In this document: in pieces, positions 1-11,911 of the stretch
Position numbering within the stretch: position 1 is the stretch's first letter
Layout: every line of letters starts with the position of its first letter
Assembly: GCF_988243305.1 (NCBI RefSeq)
Contig: NZ_OZ547136.1
Length of the DNA: 64,000 nucleotides
Reading direction: 5' to 3' (one strand)
The notes under the pieces: generated by a model
Database searches by the model: none
Seen by the model: only the letters and a program-made list of their open reading frames with translations
Told to the model about the DNA's origin: nothing
Program-made: the position numbers and the translations under genes

Positions 1-188
1 ATTACGGTAAGGACCTGTGGAGTACTTATCAGACCATCCAGGAGAATATGCTGAAAGGCGGGATTTCCGGTCGCAGTGCAAAAGGAAAACGTATCCACAC
101 CCGTGCCATTCACAGCATCGACACCGATATTAAGCTCAACCGCGCATTGTGGGTAATGGCAGAAACGCTGCTGGAGAGCCTGCGCTGA
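1..188 (+). CDS. C-terminal fragment of an island protein (possibly DUF932 family); 5' end lies outside the window
   Basis: Open frame from window edge to TGA at 186-188; stop overlaps the ATG of the next ORF; position upstream of antirestriction gene as in CP4-type islands. Family assignment is from memory, not verified. Confidence 0.45.
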   Translation, partial: YGKDLWSTYQTIQENMLKGGISGRSAKGKRIHTRAIHSIDTDIKLNRALWVMAETLLESLR

Positions 189-433
189 TGCAGCATGTCC
201 CTGAAGGCGTGATTCAGGCACCAGAATCACCCGACGCCCCGGAGGCGCTGCCGGGGTGTCGTTCCATTTCTGATGATGACCTGTGCGCCTGGTGTACCCG
301 TCTGCTTTACCGTCCCGGAGAAATCAGTCTGTGCAGACTGAGTACAGGCAATGGCATCTGGCCATCCGTCTGTGACCGGAACGGTTACGCGTACGGCTGT
401 CCGGAATTTCAGCCGAATATCATTCATCCCTGA
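188..433 (+). CDS. Small cysteine-rich hypothetical protein (81 aa), possibly DUF905/YkfF-like
   Basis: ATG at 188 overlaps upstream stop (TGATG), suggesting translational coupling; 7 Cys in 81 aa; sits between DUF932-like and antirestriction genes. Confidence 0.45.
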   Translation: MQHVPEGVIQAPESPDAPEALPGCRSISDDDLCAWCTRLLYRPGEISLCRLSTGNGIWPSVCDRNGYAYGCPEFQPNIIHP

Positions 434-526
434 TATTACCGGGTCTCACGGTCAGTGATGAACGTGATGTTGCCAGCTCCCGACCTTTACTCCCTCTCAT
501 TTATTCACATTACAAGGATTTCATAC

Positions 527-1000
527 ATGAAAACATTGTCTCAGAACACCACCTCTTCGGCCTGTGCACCGGAGACTGGCCTGCAACAACTGGTTGCCAC
601 CATAGTCCCTGATGAACAGCGCATCAGCTTCTGGCCGCAGCATTTTGGCCTCATTCCACAGTGGGTGACCCTGGAGCCCCGTGTCTTCGGCTGGATGGAC
701 CGTCTGTGCGAAAACTACTGCGGTGGTATCTGGAATCTGTACACCCTGAACAACGGCGGGGCATTTATGGCCCCTGAACCGGATGACTATGATGACGAAA
801 CATGGGTACTGTTCAATGCCATGAACGGTAACCGCGCTGAAATGAGCCCGGAAGCCGCCGGCATTGCCGCCTGTCTGATGACGTACAGTCATCACGCCTG
901 CCGTACGGAGTGTTATGCCATGACGGTTCATTATTACCGTCTGCGGGATTACGCCCTGCAGCATCCGGAATGCAGCGCCATTATGCGCATTATTGACTGA
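527..1000 (+). CDS. Antirestriction protein, KlcA/ArdB family (YfjX/YafX-like)
   Basis: Translation MKTLSQNTTSSACAPETGLQQLVATIVPDEQRISFWPQHFG... matches my recollection of the K-12 prophage antirestriction paralogs; AAGGA RBS 9 nt upstream of ATG 527. Confidence 0.85.
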   Translation: MKTLSQNTTSSACAPETGLQQLVATIVPDEQRISFWPQHFGLIPQWVTLEPRVFGWMDRLCENYCGGIWNLYTLNNGGAFMAPEPDDYDDETWVLFNAMNGNRAEMSPEAAGIAACLMTYSHHACRTECYAMTVHYYRLRDYALQHPECSAIMRIID

Positions 1001-1015
1001 AAGGGGGCAGGAACA

Positions 1016-1492
1016 ATGCAACAGCTTTCCTTTCTGCCCGGAGAGATGACGCCCGGCGAGCGCAGTCTCATTCTGCGGGCCCTGAAAACCCTGGACCGCC
1101 ATCTTCATGAACCCGGCGTGGCCTTCACCTCCACCCGTGCGGCACGGGAATGGCTGATTCTGAACATGGCGGGACTGGAGCGTGAAGAGTTCCGGGTGCT
1201 GTATCTGAATAACCAGAATCAGCTGATTGCCGGTGAAACCCTCTTCACCGGCACCATCAACCGCACGGAAGTCCATCCCCGGGAAGTGATTAAACGCGCC
1301 CTGTATCACAATGCCGCAGCCGTGGTGCTGGCACACAATCACCCGTCCGGTGAAGTCACCCCCAGTAAGGCAGACCGCCTTATCACGGAACGTCTGGTAC
1401 AGGCACTGGGCCTGGTGGATATCCGGGTGCCGGACCATCTGATAGTCGGTGGCAGCCAGGTTTTCTCCTTTGCCGAACATGGTCTGCTTTAA
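1016..1492 (+). CDS. RadC-like JAB/MPN domain protein (YeeS/YkfG/YfjY family)
   Basis: 158-aa ORF with intact JAMM-type motif HNHPSGEVTPSKAD; conserved position after antirestriction gene. Confidence 0.9.
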   Translation: MQQLSFLPGEMTPGERSLILRALKTLDRHLHEPGVAFTSTRAAREWLILNMAGLEREEFRVLYLNNQNQLIAGETLFTGTINRTEVHPREVIKRALYHNAAAVVLAHNHPSGEVTPSKADRLITERLVQALGLVDIRVPDHLIVGGSQVFSFAEHGLL

Positions 1493-1554
1493 CCCGCCAC
1501 AACCACATCACACCTGTTTTCACTTTTATCTTCTGTCTTCAGAGGTATCCCATT

Positions 1555-1776
1555 ATGAAAATCATCACCCGTGGTGAAGCCATGCGTATTCACCAACAGC
1601 ATCCTGCATCCCGTCTTTTTCCGTTCTGTACCGGCAAATACCGCTGGCACGGCAGCACTGAAACGTATACCGGTCGTGAAGTGCAGGATATTCCCGGTGT
1701 GCTGGCCGTGTTTGCTGAACGCCGTAAGGACAGTTTTGGCCCGTATGTCCGGCTGATGAGCGTCACTCTGAACTGA
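1555..1776 (+). CDS. DUF987 protein (YeeT/YkfH/YpjJ-like)
   Basis: 73-aa translation MKIITRGEAMRIHQQHP...YVRLMSVTLN is near-identical to K-12 YeeT as I recall it. Confidence 0.85.
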   Translation: MKIITRGEAMRIHQQHPASRLFPFCTGKYRWHGSTETYTGREVQDIPGVLAVFAERRKDSFGPYVRLMSVTLN

Positions 1777-1794
1777 GTCAGTAAGGGCATTCTG

Positions 1795-2439
1795 ATGAGC
1801 AGAATTATCACCACCACCGTGTATACACTGCATGAGCTATCCTCCACCGCACAGGAAAAAGCCCGCGACTGGTACCGTCAGCATCATGCTGACAGCAACT
1901 GGTATGAAAACGTGTATGAGGACTTCAGGGAGGTCTGTGGCATTTTCGGAATTGACCTCCGCCAGCGCGTTTTCCGGCTCAGCAACGGCAGGTTTATGGA
2001 AGAGCCGTGCATCTGGTTCAGCGGATTCTGCAGTCAGGGGGACGGAGCCTGTTTTGAAGGGCGCTGGCACTGGCAGCCAGCGACACCCCGGAAAATCAGG
2101 GAATATGCCCCTCAGGACCGTGAGCTTCATCGTATCGCGGATGCCCTGCAGGCGGTACAGAAGCGTAACTTCTGGCAGTTACAGGCTGAAATCAGTCACC
2201 GGGGACGTTACTGCCATCCGTACAGCATGGATATCACCGTCACCCGGAACAGTCCGACTGGTCAGGCACTGACAGCCGATGCGGAAGCCGCTGTCAGCGA
2301 AGCCCTGCGCGACCTGGCCTTCTGGCTGTACCGCCAGCTGGAAAACGAGTACGACTGGCTGACCTCAGACGCCGCTGTAGATGAGGCCATTCACATCAAT
2401 GCATATACCTTCACCGAAGCCGGTCTCCACGCCGGCTGA
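1795..2439 (+). CDS. Hypothetical protein (214 aa), unknown function, inserted between DUF987 gene and cbeA
   Basis: Uninterrupted 645-nt ORF; ATG preceded by AAGGG; Trp/Cys-rich; no family recognised. The K-12 yeeT-cbeA type modules have no gene here. Confidence 0.55.
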   Translation: MSRIITTTVYTLHELSSTAQEKARDWYRQHHADSNWYENVYEDFREVCGIFGIDLRQRVFRLSNGRFMEEPCIWFSGFCSQGDGACFEGRWHWQPATPRKIREYAPQDRELHRIADALQAVQKRNFWQLQAEISHRGRYCHPYSMDITVTRNSPTGQALTADAEAAVSEALRDLAFWLYRQLENEYDWLTSDAAVDEAIHINAYTFTEAGLHAG

Positions 2440-2488
2440 CCTGTCATCGTTAAACTATCATTCACCAATTTTTTGTGAGGATTTGATC

Positions 2489-2866
2489 GTGTCAGACACA
2501 CTCCCCGGGACAACACTTCCCGACGACAATCACGACCGCCCCTGGTGGGGGCTGCCCTGCACCGTGACGCCCTGTTTCGGGGCACGTCTGGTGCAGGAGG
2601 GTAACCGGTTGCATTACCTTGCAGACCGCACCGGTATCAGAGGCCGGTTCAGCAATGCGGATGCATACCATCTGGACCAGGCTTTTCCACTGCTGATGAA
2701 ACAACTGGAACTCATGCTCACCAGCGGTGAACTGAATCCCCGCCATCAGCATACCGTCACGCTGTATGCGAAAGGGCTGACCTGCGAAGCTGATACCCTT
2801 GGCAGTTGTGGTTACGTTTATCTGGCTGTTTATCCGACACCGGCAGCACCCGCAATCACCGTATAA
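2489..2866 (+). CDS. cbeA: Type IV TA antitoxin CbeA (YeeU) homolog
   Basis: GTG start with GTGAGGA RBS; translation VSDTLPGTTLPDDNHDRPWWGLPCTVTPCFGARLVQEGNRLHYLADR... matches K-12 CbeA. Confidence 0.9.
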   Translation: MSDTLPGTTLPDDNHDRPWWGLPCTVTPCFGARLVQEGNRLHYLADRTGIRGRFSNADAYHLDQAFPLLMKQLELMLTSGELNPRHQHTVTLYAKGLTCEADTLGSCGYVYLAVYPTPAAPAITV

Positions 2867-2912
2867 CCCCGGATATCTCCCCTTTATCACCACCTGTTAC
2901 AGAGAACTTAAG

Positions 2913-3287
2913 ATGAATACATTACCCGACACTCACGTACGGGAGGCATCGGGCTGCCCGTCTCCCGTCACCATCTGGCAGACACTGCTCACCCGACTGC
3001 TGGACCAGCACTACGGCCTCACGCTGAATGACACACCGTTCGCTGATGAACGTGTGATTGAGCAGCATATTGAGGCAGGTATTTCACTGTGTGATGCGGT
3101 GAACTTTCTCGTGGAAAAATACGCGCTGGTGCGTACCGACCAGCCGGGATTCAGCGCCTGTACCCGCTCTCAGTTAATAAACAGCATCGATATCCTCCGG
3201 GCTCGCAGGGCGACCGGCCTGATGACCCGCGACAATTACAGAACGGTAAATAACATAACCCTGGGTAAGCATCCGGAGGCGAAATGA
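2913..3287 (+). CDS. cbtA: Type IV TA toxin CbtA (YeeV) homolog, cytoskeleton-targeting
   Basis: 124-aa translation; C-terminal ~100 aa (LLDQHYGLTLNDTPFADERVIEQHIEAGISLCDAVNFLVEKYALVR...) matches K-12 CbtA; N-terminus divergent. Confidence 0.9.
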   Translation: MNTLPDTHVREASGCPSPVTIWQTLLTRLLDQHYGLTLNDTPFADERVIEQHIEAGISLCDAVNFLVEKYALVRTDQPGFSACTRSQLINSIDILRARRATGLMTRDNYRTVNNITLGKHPEAK

Positions 3288-3775
3288 TGAAACTGGCCCT
3301 GACGCTGGAAGCCGACAGCGTTAACGTACAGGCACTGAACATGGGGCGCATTGTCGTTGACGTCGATGGTATTGAGCTTGCTGAACTGATTAACGTGGTC
3401 TGCGATAACGGTCACTCCCTTCGTGTTGTTGATGAATCTGACCGAGCCTCAACAGACTGCACGCCACCATTTGCTGCCCTGACCGGCATACGCTGCAGTA
3501 CCGCGCATATCACGGCAAAAGACAACGCCTGGCTGTACTCGCTGTCGCATCAGACGAATGACACCGGCGAATCAGAATGGATTCATTTTACAGGCAGCGG
3601 ATATCTGTTACGTACCGATGCGTGGTCATACCCGGTTCTGCGGCTTAAACGCCTGGGCCTGTCAAAAACGTTCCGCCGCCTGGTTGTCACACTCATCCGA
3701 CGTTATGGCGTCAGTCTCATTCATCTGGATGCCAGCGCTGAATGCCTGCCGGGTTTACCCACTTTCGACTGGTAA
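3284..3775 (+). CDS. DUF5983 protein (YeeW-like), overlaps cbtA stop
   Basis: ATG at 3284 overlaps cbtA stop (ATGATGA); 163-aa ORF in the conserved position after cbtA. Confidence 0.75.
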   Translation: MMKLALTLEADSVNVQALNMGRIVVDVDGIELAELINVVCDNGHSLRVVDESDRASTDCTPPFAALTGIRCSTAHITAKDNAWLYSLSHQTNDTGESEWIHFTGSGYLLRTDAWSYPVLRLKRLGLSKTFRRLVVTLIRRYGVSLIHLDASAECLPGLPTFDW

Positions 3776-3777
3776 CC

Positions 3778-3984
3778 ATGAACAACATGAAATCATTAAC
3801 CACGGAAACCGCACTGGATATTCTGATTGCGTGGCTGCAGGACAATATCGACTGCGAATCGGGAATTATCTTTGACAACGATGAGGATAAAACAGATTCG
3901 GCAGCACTGTTGCCCTGTATCGAACAGGCCAGGGAGGGTATCCGTACCCTGTGCCAACTGCAGCTTCTGCACCAGAACCGATGA
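3778..3984 (+). CDS. Small acidic hypothetical protein (68 aa), possibly DUF957-like
   Basis: ATG 2 nt after the previous stop; acidic DNDEDK stretch; family assignment from memory only. Confidence 0.5.
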   Translation: MNNMKSLTTETALDILIAWLQDNIDCESGIIFDNDEDKTDSAALLPCIEQAREGIRTLCQLQLLHQNR

Positions 3985-4073
3985 GTCTTACTCATTCACT
4001 CACCAGACTTCATTCCAATGACGTCAGCCTGAACAGGGCTGGCGTTTTCGTTTATAAACCAAAAGGAAAAACG

Positions 4074-4919
4074 ATGATGTCAGATATCACAATCTCCCGC
4101 CTGGAAGTGGTCAACGGACATACGGACATTATCTGCTCCACCTCAGTCAGCCACATTCTGGCTGTGCGAAAGACTACACTGCTGCAAATCGACACACTTA
4201 TCCGGCAACTGACTGAAATATCAGCAATGACAGAAAGTATTGGCGGTAAAACCGCACTGGACTGGGCCATGAAACAGGATTTTCGCTGCGGCTGCTGGCT
4301 CATGGATAAACCTGATACAGCAATGAAAGCTATCACCCGCAATCTCGATCGCGAAATCTGGCGTGACCTGATGCAATGCTCCGGGATGCTTTCCTTAATG
4401 GATGCACAGGCCCGTGATACATGGTACCGATCACTGGAGTACGATAATTTTCCGGAAATCAGTGAAGAGAATATTCTGAGTACGTTTGAGCAGCTACACC
4501 AGAATAAGGATGAAGTGTTTGAGCGAGGAGTGATCAACCTCTTCAGAGGGTTGAGCTGGAATTACAAAACCAATTGCCCCTGTAAATTTGGCAATAAAAT
4601 TATCGTCAACAATCTGGTGAGGTGGGACCGGTGGGGATTGCATCTTATCACCGGGCAACAGGCAGATAGACTTGCCGACCTGGAAAGAATGCTGCATCTG
4701 TTCAGCGGCAAACCGATCCCCGACAACAGGGAAAACATAACTATTCATCTGGACGAACATATCCGGTCTCTTCAGGGAAAAGAATGCTATGAAGATGAGA
4801 TGTTCATTATTAAATACTTTAAGAAGGGCTCTGCGCACATCACGTTCAGGAAGCCAGAACTGGTTGACAGACTGAATGATATTATCGCAAAACACTATCC
4901 TGATATGCTGGCAGTATAG
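4074..4919 (+). CDS. Hypothetical protein (281 aa), island cargo next to serX; possibly DUF4942-like
   Basis: AAGGAAAA RBS before ATG 4074; long ORF with lower GC than core; no catalytic motif recognised. Confidence 0.6.
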   Translation: MMSDITISRLEVVNGHTDIICSTSVSHILAVRKTTLLQIDTLIRQLTEISAMTESIGGKTALDWAMKQDFRCGCWLMDKPDTAMKAITRNLDREIWRDLMQCSGMLSLMDAQARDTWYRSLEYDNFPEISEENILSTFEQLHQNKDEVFERGVINLFRGLSWNYKTNCPCKFGNKIIVNNLVRWDRWGLHLITGQQADRLADLERMLHLFSGKPIPDNRENITIHLDEHIRSLQGKECYEDEMFIIKYFKKGSAHITFRKPELVDRLNDIIAKHYPDMLAV

Positions 4920-5026
4920 CTTTGCCAGTATGCTCAAAGATCGGAAATTGTCCGATAAGATATGATCGTGGGGCATATAAACCGGTTTCAGATGGCATAC
5001 CCGGTGGCATACTGTCTGGAAGGATA

Positions 5027-5060
5027 AATAAAAAAGCGCATGTTAAACAATAACATGCGC
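5027..5060 (-). terminator. Rho-independent terminator of serX
   Basis: Perfect 10-bp inverted repeat GCGCATGTTA/TAACATGCGC with 5-nt loop, followed on the minus strand by a T-tract, just downstream of the tRNA 3' end. Confidence 0.7.
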
Positions 5061-5068
5061 TTGTAATC

Positions 5069-5156
5069 TGGCGGTGAGGGGGGGATTCGAACCCCCGATA
5101 CGTTGCCGTATACACACTTTCCAGGCGTGCTCCTTCAGCCACTCGGACACCTCACC
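5069..5156 (-). tRNA. serX: tRNA-Ser (GGA), serX
   Basis: Reverse complement reads GGTGAGGTGTCCGAGTGGCTGAAGGAGCACGCCTGGAAAGTGTGTATACGGCAACGTATCGGGGGTTCGAATCCCCCCCTCACCGCCA: 88 nt, long variable arm, CCA end. Confidence 0.95.
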
Positions 5157-5350
5157 AAATTGTTGTTCCTGTCTTGCTGGAACGGGCGCTAATTTAGGGA
5201 AATCATGACCTGAGGTCAACAAACTTTTTTAAAAAATCGCGCGTTTATTCAAACTTCAATCAATATGCAGTTTTAATAAGCGAAATCTGCTTTTTTTGCC
5301 ACCGACCACGGATTTGTTATGCTGGTGGCTTTTGTAGATCATAACGATAA

Positions 5351-6328
<978 letters not shown>

Positions 6329-10050: not shown

Positions 10051-10701
<651 letters not shown>

Positions 10702-11455
10702 GATGAAACCCCGCTTTTTTTATTGATCGCACACCTGACAGCTGCCTCTAAAATAGAAGCACCAGAAGTACTGACAGATGTTGCACTGCTGTGTGTAGTA
10801 ATAAATCAGCCCTAAATGGGTAAAATATAAAACTAATGGATTACATGTGATTTCAATCTAGCCATTACAAATCTTAAATCAAGTGTTAAACATGTAACTA
10901 AATGTAACTCGTTATATTAAAATGTTAATCTTAAGGTTTTGTTAAGTTTAGAAATGATAGAAAAGTTGTACATTTGGTTTTTATTGCACAATTTTAAAAA
11001 ATCATACAAATGGTGCTAACTTACTAATAATGCATATAAAAAATATTTCGGTGTAGTCCTTTCGTCATGTAAAACGTTGTTGTTTTTTCTTCACACCTCC
11101 GTGGACAATTTTTTACTGCAAAAAGACGAGGTTTGTCACGGCTTGTGCGCAAGACATATCGCAGCAATCAGCGACGGGCAAGAAGAATGGCTGTCTGGTG
11201 ATTTTTGATTGCGGAAAACGGAGATTTAAAAGAAAACAAAATATTTTTTTGCGTAGATAACAGCGTATTTACGTGGGTTTTAATACTTTGGTATGAACAA
11301 AAAAAGAAAAATACAACGCGCGGGTGAGTTATTAAAAATATTTCCGCAGACATACTTTCCATCGTAACGCAGCGTTAACAAAATACAGGTTGCGTTAACA
11401 ACCAAGTTGAAATGATTTAATTTCTTAAATGTACGACCAGGTCCAGGGTGACAAC
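10702..11455. promoter_or_regulatory. csgD-csgB divergent intergenic control region
   Basis: ~750-bp AT-rich non-coding stretch between divergent csgD and csgB starts; known multi-factor regulatory region. Confidence 0.8.
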
Positions 11456-11911
11456 ATGAAAAACAAATTGTTATTTATGATGTTAACAATACTGGGTGCG
11501 CCTGGGATTGCAGCCGCAGCAGGTTATGATTTAGCTAATTCAGAATATAACTTCGCGGTAAATGAATTGAGTAAGTCTTCATTTAATCAGGCAGCCATAA
11601 TTGGTCAAGCTGGGACTAATAATAGTGCTCAGTTACGGCAGGGAGGCTCAAAACTTTTGGCGGTTGTTGCGCAAGAAGGTAGTAGCAATCGGGCAAAGAT
11701 TGACCAGACAGGAGATTATAACCTTGCATATATTGATCAGGCGGGCAGTGCCAACGATGCCAGTATTTCGCAAGGTGCTTATGGTAATACTGCGATGATT
11801 ATCCAGAAAGGTTCTGGTAATAAAGCAAATATTACACAGTATGGTACTCAAAAAACGGCAATTGTAGTGCAGAGACAGTCGCAAATGGCAATTCGCGTGA
11901 CACAACGTTAA
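11456..11911 (+). CDS. csgB: Minor curlin (nucleator) CsgB
   Basis: 151 aa; signal peptide then imperfect Q/N/G-rich repeats. Confidence 0.95.
   Translation: MKNKLLFMMLTILGAPGIAAAAGYDLANSEYNFAVNELSKSSFNQAAIIGQAGTNNSAQLRQGGSKLLAVVAQEGSSNRAKIDQTGDYNLAYIDQAGSANDASISQGAYGNTAMIIQKGSGNKANITQYGTQKTAIVVQRQSQMAIRVTQR

Follow-up and report, generated by a model that had tools for sequence, protein, structure and literature searches.

Genomic islands that use a serine tRNA gene as their integration site, and that carry the same short flanking repeat, have already been described in Escherichia coli and Shigella. OI-43/OI-48 and the SRL PAI have a common 14-bp flanking repeat, TGGCGGTGAGGGGG, and site-specific excision of OI-43/OI-48 occurs at 2e-4 to 2e-3 (PMC3064760); excision of the SRL PAI is integrase-dependent (PMC7545054). 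Within extraintestinal pathogenic E. coli (ExPEC), a 62-kb serX island of B2/ST95 strains is listed as PAI-UTI89-serX at 1080842..1142536 (PMC7545054), with further listings as PAI-RS218-serX, PAI-IHE3034-serX and PAI-UM146-serX. The locus considered here belongs among these systems. The window, a stretch of 64,000 nucleotides from contig NZ_OZ547136.1 (assembly GCF_988243305.1), opens with an arm (1-5068) that is, by placement of the tRNA at 5069-5156, the exact 3' flank of serX. We hold with high confidence that this arm is the tRNA-proximal end of the ~64-kb integrative island PAI-UTI89-serX, which encodes a P4-family tyrosine integrase and occupies the last 14 bp of serX. As such, the island on the serX flank is an ordinary one, already described and catalogued for ExPEC.

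Compared over 5400 bp, the window shows 100% identity with E. coli strain 190693 and 99.9% with UTI89 (1137464-1142863). The distal features of the island (the integrase and the second repeat) fall outside the window and were taken from strain 190693, identical over the 5400 bp compared, where annotation gives an island of 64.2 kb running from an intact tyrosine integrase beside dgcT to serX. A sequence-only reading of the window had predicted that an integrase and a second att repeat would lie upstream of it, and both were located in this strain: the integrase gene is 64 kb away (record 4792656-4793858), and the 14-bp serX 3' end recurs just outside it, 161 bp from its start. The two copies of TGGCGGTGAGGGGG (L002 10483-10496 at the integrase end; window 5069-5082) are perfect. 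No 25-nt copy of the serX 3' end turned up within 50 kb upstream when up to three mismatches were allowed. The true repeat is only 14 bp long and was spotted by reading the spacer between dgcT and the integrase gene. The integrase itself is a full-length tyrosine recombinase of 400 aa, matching phrog_1 at 5e-52 and PRK09692 at 3.5e-55, and its gene shares 99.6% nucleotide identity with that of O157:H7. It is of the SRL-PAI/OI-48 type and not IntF-like; a CP4-6-like integrase was rejected, as BLASTP against IntF yielded a 29-residue motif match only (E = 6e-4).

The genes of the arm all lie on the plus strand (Table 1), and Pfam scans and RefSeq annotation agree with the antirestriction, RadC-like, DUF987, CbeA/CbtA and DUF5983 genes that had been named from the letters alone; RefSeq, in the 100%-identical record, adds DUF932, DUF957 and two hypothetical proteins. 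Together with DUF932, DUF957 and DUF4942 genes, they form a conserved maintenance module that ends many E. coli islands. The 'extra ORFs' reported alongside them are also real, as exemplified by the 214-aa ORF, which has at least 2895 homologues, some of them called as CbeA fusions, in a family that NCBI names 'antitoxin of toxin-antitoxin stability system'; it gave no match in Pfam or in a PDB sequence search. The 81-aa ORF was without a match in Pfam, NCBIfam, PHROG or PADLOC, and the DUF957-named protein was without one in the Pfam scan. Among the arm proteins, NCBIfam matched only the RadC-like one and no PADLOC defence-system model matched any, whilst the DUF4942 protein showed a further weak match (8e-19) to phrog_6263, annotated as a DNA methyltransferase.

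Table 1. Features of the serX 3' flank and of serX, in window coordinates
Feature	Positions	Strand	Basis
DUF932 (YafZ-like) gene, 3' end, truncated by the window start	1-188	+	RefSeq CDS L001 19367-20188, 100%-identical record
81-aa Cys-rich hypothetical ORF	188-433	+	RefSeq hypothetical protein
Antirestriction protein (YafX/YfjX/KlcA-like)	527-1000	+	Antirestrict PF03230 9e-36; phrog_10132 anti-restriction 6e-63
RadC-like JAB domain protein (YkfG/YeeS-like)	1016-1492	+	PF04002 5e-43; TIGR00608 149.5 bits, above cutoff
DUF987 protein (YkfH/YeeT-like)	1555-1776	+	PF06174 5e-37
214-aa uncharacterised protein	1795-2439	+	phrog_5162 7e-37
CbeA-family type IV antitoxin	2489-2866	+	CbeA_antitoxin PF06154 7e-53; RefSeq name cbeA
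CbtA-family type IV toxin	2913-3287	+	CbtA_toxin PF06755 1e-62; 61% identical to K-12 YkfI
DUF5983 protein (YeeW-like)	3284-3775	+	DUF5983_N and DUF5983, PF25638 and PF19419, 1e-30 and 9e-21
65-aa protein, DUF957 by RefSeq name	3787-3984	+	RefSeq annotation only
DUF4942 protein, last island gene	4077-4919	+	PF13708 4e-69
Two TGGCATAC copies 12 bp apart, candidate arm-type integrase-binding site	4993-5012	+	Pair search
Intrinsic terminator hairpin for serX, island-supplied	5034-5062	-	Terminator scan: 12-pair stem, then T tract
att core TGGCGGTGAGGGGG, 14 bp, the last 14 nt of serX	5069-5082		Repeat comparison, both island ends
serX, tRNA-Ser(GGA), intact	5069-5156	-	ARAGORN; Rfam RF00005

The antitoxin gene precedes the toxin gene on one strand, with a gap of 46 bp. 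CbtA of K-12 inhibits FtsZ/MreB polymerisation, and CbeA counteracts this without binding the toxin; by homology (61% to YkfI), the pair at 2489-3287 would be expected to act in the same way. Such a toxin-antitoxin pair probably stabilises the island, and the antirestriction and RadC genes may aid its establishment after transfer. It is conceivable, though we regard it as rather improbable, that the 214-aa protein, DUF5983, DUF957, DUF4942 and CbeA/CbtA constitute more than a two-gene toxin-antitoxin system, namely a larger functional unit that acts, for instance, in anti-defence or abortive infection.

At the tRNA itself, the integrase very probably inserted the island by recombining its attP core with the last 14 bp of serX. 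Insertion restored an intact serX from island DNA, which supplied both its 14-nt 3' end and a new terminator hairpin, and the original 14-nt fragment, with the old terminator, was pushed 64 kb away to adjoin the integrase gene beside dgcT. In the junction alignment, the hairpin next to serX is unlike that of the empty site in sequence, and the chromosomal serX hairpin is retained at the distal junction. Apart from tRNA, Rfam recorded no RNA families in 1-5068. The TGGCATAC pair near serX has a matching pair at the opposite end of the island, immediately before the start codon of the integrase gene, and these two pairs account for four of the five occurrences of TGGCATAC in 114 kb; the paired repeats are putative arm-type integrase sites. 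Their presence in the O157 and O145 islands as well is uninformative, because the entire att arm is 97-100% conserved there.

Placing the boundary of an island by composition comes with its own difficulties in this locus: GC content lies at 0.51-0.59 in positions 1-3750 and at 0.44-0.48 in positions 3750-5250, compared with 0.45-0.52 for the core, and the profile that had been proposed as a check on the junction displayed no step there. GC was therefore not used as a boundary marker, and strains with an empty site were used instead. CE2050 and APEC E18006 have such a site, consisting of dgcT, 104 bp and serX; aligned with these strains, the left junction matches the empty site through the 14-bp repeat inclusive and the right junction matches it from the 14-bp repeat onward. 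In island-free genomes, similarity to the window stops at 5065-5069, at the 3' end of serX. Across 5426 complete E. coli genomes, the junction of DUF4942, serX and ghrA is present in 1172 (~22%) and the integrase in 1261. The absence of a sharp GC difference would also suit an altogether different account, in which the flank is ancestral core chromosome that K-12 has lost. This was refuted by the frequency survey and the empty-site strains, and we give it practically no credence: ~78% of complete genomes are without the junction, their similarity ending exactly at the serX 3' end, and insertion is indicated by the empty sites, by the direct repeat on either side and by the integrase. In K-12 MG1655, ycdU faces the 3' end of serX, as the sequence-only reading had stated, and the arm module is absent from that position. 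The empty-site strains are without ycdU and ymdE, so the ancestral neighbour of serX in this lineage is dgcT and not ycdU. Identical gene content in K-12-like strains, or a missing second repeat or integrase, had been put forward as grounds for abandoning an island; neither applies here.

Given that an island is present, one must consider whether its two ends share an origin. The arm could be a later replacement, acquired through homologous recombination between CP4-like arms, of which one genome carries several; the island would then be a mosaic with ends of different descent. Material for such exchange exists, since the module is multicopy, occupying a median of 4 places in a genome and as many as 18. 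The integrase gene is 99.6% identical to that of O157:H7 whilst the DUF4942-serX junction is only ~94% identical, so that arm and integrase may have separate histories, and identity over the non-coding att arm (4920-5068) is in turn 97-98%. However, the last 150 bp beside the core are nearly alike in O157, O145 and the window strain, so that the att-proximal end is common to islands with this integrase, and mosaicism would in any case alter the history of the arm and not the nature of the feature. We consider a swapped arm a possible but unlikely origin. A little more doubtful still is the proposal that the island is a fixed, immobile remnant akin to a cryptic prophage, incapable of excision and persisting solely through vertical inheritance and its toxin-antitoxin pair. 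In the annotation of strain 190693, the interior is filled with IS elements, pseudogenes, frameshifted genes and fragments, which makes transfer competence doubtful; conjugation and phage structural genes are absent from that annotation, and no recombination directionality factor was identified. Against this decay stand a full-length integrase, two perfect 14-bp repeats, the clean empty site of a close ST95-type relative, and the measurable excision of equally IS-rich sister islands with the same repeat (PMC3064760). An integrative island remains our preferred reading. The traits tested were found at this locus, namely a tRNA gene left intact by an insertion at its 3' end, 14-bp direct repeats, an intact integrase at one att and, in related strains, an empty attB; it is a genomic island integrated at a tRNA, with a tyrosine integrase of the P4 family and an att of the SRL-PAI/OI-48 type, which by analogy with those islands would be expected to excise and integrate.

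The practical gains are that the boundaries of the island in the window are now known to the base, and that serX can be seen to owe both its 3' end and its terminator to the island. The frequency of the junction in E. coli is a useful by-product; otherwise, the importance of the locus is mainly one of correct annotation, and several of the conserved arm genes remain functionally uncharacterised.

Comparison with described islands separates the arm from the integrase. In K-12 CP4-6, thrW(+) faces a series of minus-strand genes, namely ykfI (toxin), yafW, ykfH (DUF987), ykfG (RadC) and yafX, and intF lies at the opposite end of the element. The topology that the sequence-only reading had drawn from CP4-6, with the toxin end toward the tRNA, is indeed the one found here: the order of DUF932, antirestriction, RadC, DUF987, antitoxin and toxin is shared, as is an integrase at the far end on the strand of the arm, and CP4-44 and CP4-57 have arms that are grouped with that of CP4-6 as related. 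The label 'CP4-like' therefore holds for the arm, with its toxin 61% identical to YkfI, but not for the integrase, whose resemblance to IntF goes no further than a generic tyrosine-recombinase motif; the tRNA target of CP4-6 is also thrW and not serX. Moreover, only the ykfN pseudogene lies between toxin and thrW in CP4-6, whereas the window arm has in addition the 214-aa ORF and DUF5983, DUF957 and DUF4942 genes, all three of full length.

Closer to the window island is OI-48 of O157:H7, with which it shares the serX target, TGGCGGTGAGGGGG, a near-identical integrase gene placed at the island end away from the intact tRNA and, beside serX, a CP4-like arm that ends in DUF4942. The O157 arm is nevertheless only ~94% identical to that of the window, on the left chromosomal side O157 has ycdU where the window lineage has dgcT, and OI-48, a tellurite-resistance island (with OI-43 at serW), carries ter, ure and iha where the window island, as annotated in strain 190693, carries an enterotoxin gene, malX, ibrAB and Ag43. 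The SRL PAI of Shigella flexneri has the same 14-bp repeat with a different cargo of resistance and fec genes. The closest likeness is to PAI-UTI89-serX. The S pilus and salmochelin genes given among its contents (PMC7545054) are missing from the island annotation of strain 190693, but DNA identity is 99.9% over the arm and junction, both islands occupy the same site, belong to one size class and carry Ag43, and its published right boundary, 1142536, falls within the 14-bp repeat. The island in the window is PAI-UTI89-serX or a near-identical allele of it.

The only tRNA gene in the window, a tRNA-Ser(GGA) called by ARAGORN with Rfam in agreement, has ghrA, ycdX, ycdY, ycdZ and the csg operons downstream of it in plus-strand direction, which identifies it as serX and window 1-5068 (hereafter the arm) as the serX 3' flank. 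The arm is a compact series of ORFs, all on the plus strand, in which Pfam and RefSeq place the antirestriction, RadC-like, DUF987, CbeA/CbtA and DUF5983 genes, plus extra ORFs, just where a sequence-only reading had seen them: it is a conserved CP4-like accessory module. Elsewhere in the window, a GC trough (0.32-0.36) coincides with the csgD-csgB intergenic region, and Rfam matches comprise ES056, the PyrC leader, ES036, the rne 5' UTR and SraB; all of this is ordinary core-genome content.

Features of the serX island and its surroundings (window coordinates unless L002, integrase end of the island in strain 190693, or L003, the K-12 MG1655 serX region, is named)
Feature	Coordinates	Strand	Source or match
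DUF932 gene end	1-188		RefSeq annotation of identical record
81-aa hypothetical protein	188-433		RefSeq annotation of identical record
Antirestrict	527-1000	+	Pfam 9e-36
RadC-like JAB	1016-1492	+	Pfam 5e-43
DUF987	1555-1776	+	Pfam 5e-37
214-aa ORF	1795-2439	+	phrog_5162 7e-37
CbeA_antitoxin	2489-2866	+	Pfam 7e-53
CbtA_toxin	2913-3287	+	Pfam 1e-62
DUF5983_N + DUF5983	3284-3775	+	Pfam 1e-30, 9e-21
65-aa protein named DUF957	3787-3984		RefSeq annotation of identical record
DUF4942	4077-4919	+	Pfam 4e-69
TGGCATAC pair, arm side	4993 and 5005 (4993-5012)		
serX terminator hairpin	5062-5034	minus	
14-bp core, serX 3' end	5069-5082		
serX, tRNA-Ser(GGA)	5069-5156	minus	ARAGORN; Rfam
GC trough	10500-11500		
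ES056 sRNA	10757-10848	minus	Rfam
14-bp core, integrase end	L002 10483-10496		
TGGCATAC pair, integrase side	L002 10616 and 10628 (10616-10635)		
~181-bp tandem units	L003 6960-7565		

Over window 1-5400, identity is 100% with the blood isolate E. coli 190693 and 99.9% with UTI89, NU14, APEC O18 and UM146; in strain 190693, foreign DNA runs on upstream of the equivalent stretch. Both upstream features predicted from sequence, an integrase and a direct repeat of the serX 3' end, were found there. An intact 400-aa tyrosine recombinase (phrog_1 integrase, 5e-52; PRK09692, 3.5e-55) is annotated directly after dgcT, at the tRNA-distal end and in the same orientation as the arm genes, and the dgcT-integrase spacer repeats the final 14 nt of serX, TGGCGGTGAGGGGG, without a mismatch, 64.2 kb from the copy within serX. 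Island-free strains (CE2050 and the ST95-type APEC E18006) have only 104 bp between dgcT and serX. A five-way alignment shows the left junction following this empty site through the end of the 14-mer and diverging beyond, and the right junction diverging ahead of the 14-mer and following the empty site from it onward, which is how attL, attR and attB are normally related after site-specific integration. The integrated element has a 14-bp repeat of the serX 3' end at each boundary. serX itself is intact, with its last 14 nt and its terminator (12 pairs and a T tract) derived from the island; the ancestral hairpin is still found beside the displaced 14-mer, next to the integrase.

The copy in strain 190693 is heavily IS-ridden. 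Annotation of its interior (L001 1-20000 and L002 10657-50000) lists Ag43, a YeeP-like GTPase, IS fragments, ibrAB-like genes, an aspartate racemase gene paired with one for a C4-dicarboxylate (dcuA-like) transporter, a pair that the Shigella SRL PAI is reported to have as well, rbsK-fucP, malX, malY, an enterotoxin gene and large AAA proteins. The 62-kb ST95 serX islands are listed as bearing 'S pilus, salmochelin, Ag43' (PMC7545054); unlike that listing, the annotation here includes Ag43 and lacks S-pilus and salmochelin genes.

Two copies of TGGCATAC lie 12 bp apart on the arm side, 57-76 bp from the core, and an identical pair in the same orientation is found at the other end of the island, just upstream of the integrase start and 120-139 bp from the core. 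These pairs account for four of the five occurrences in 114 kb and could be arm-type integrase-binding sites. The O157 and O145 islands keep them, but this carries no information, since their att arms are 97-100% conserved throughout. Integrase and att arms together are 97-100% identical to those islands, the integrase gene 99.6% to that of O157:H7, whereas the junction and adjacent DUF4942 region reach only ~94% (window 4600-5068 against the O157/O145 island DNA L007 and L009; L002 10300-11900 against L008). This suggests a mosaic island family with one common integration module. Among 5426 complete E. coli genomes, 1172 have the DUF4942-serX-ghrA junction and 1261 the integrase gene; in most genomes without the junction, similarity to the window starts at 5065-5069, exactly the serX 3' end. 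The arm family is multicopy: the median genome carries it at 4 places.

Within the arm, CbtA/CbeA may act as an addiction module working against island loss, and the antirestriction and RadC-type genes may help establishment in a new host. The largest extra ORF, of 214 aa, had no match in Pfam, NCBIfam, PADLOC or PDB; its family counts at least 2895 members, from Enterobacteriaceae and also from alphaproteobacteria (~60% identity in the latter), for which NCBI's usual name is 'antitoxin of toxin-antitoxin stability system'. In some E. coli contigs the gene call joins a relative and CbeA into one fusion protein of 342-343 aa, a hint of a functional tie to the toxin-antitoxin pair.

The sequence-only reading is confirmed in its observation and supported in its interpretation, with two small corrections, to the ancestral neighbour in this lineage and to the integrase type. 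ycdU does face the serX 3' end in MG1655 (dgcT, IS3, ymdE, ycdU, three ~181-bp tandem units, serX), and the same island type adjoins it in O157:H7, but it is missing from the B2 lineage, empty sites included. Each MG1655 unit, in the ycdU-serX interval, ends in a terminator-like hairpin and 19 nt of the serX 3' end (TGGCGGTGAGGGGGGGATT); as the 14-bp core lies inside each, K-12 has four potential attB copies. B2 empty-site strains have a single unit against three in MG1655, and in other strains the RefSeq annotation calls equivalent units 'RtT sRNA'. The likeness to CP4-6, the K-12 cryptic prophage at thrW, holds for topology: plus-strand thrW faces the toxin gene ykfI as serX faces the arm's toxin end, followed by yafW (antitoxin), ykfH (DUF987), ykfG (RadC), yafX and, farther on, yafZ (DUF932) and ykfA, all on the minus strand, with intF at the far end on the strand of that arm; the CbtA toxin is 61% identical to YkfI. 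It does not extend to the integrase: an IntF-like enzyme is ruled out, as only a 29-residue motif aligns with IntF.

The island has been described before: a table in a 2020 review gives PAI-UTI89-serX as 1080842..1142536 (62 kb), lists the same island for RS218, IHE3034 and UM146, and also lists the 113-kb PAI-CFT073-serX (PMC7545054); window base 5068 corresponds to UTI89 ~1142531, so the published boundary falls inside the 14-bp repeat. In EDL933, the islands OI-43 and OI-48 each have a perfect 14-bp repeat at both ends, TGGCGGTGAGGGGG, which corresponds to the final 14 bp of serW and serX and is identical in the SRL PAI; their integrase and that of the SRL PAI share 99% identity, and site-specific recombination excises the two islands in 2e-4 to 2e-3 of cells (Bielaszewska et al. 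2011, PMC3064760). According to the review, the SRL PAI could be deleted precisely only when its integrase gene was present (PMC7545054). By analogy with these sister islands, which share the att repeat, the integrase here would catalyse both excision and integration at serX/serW.
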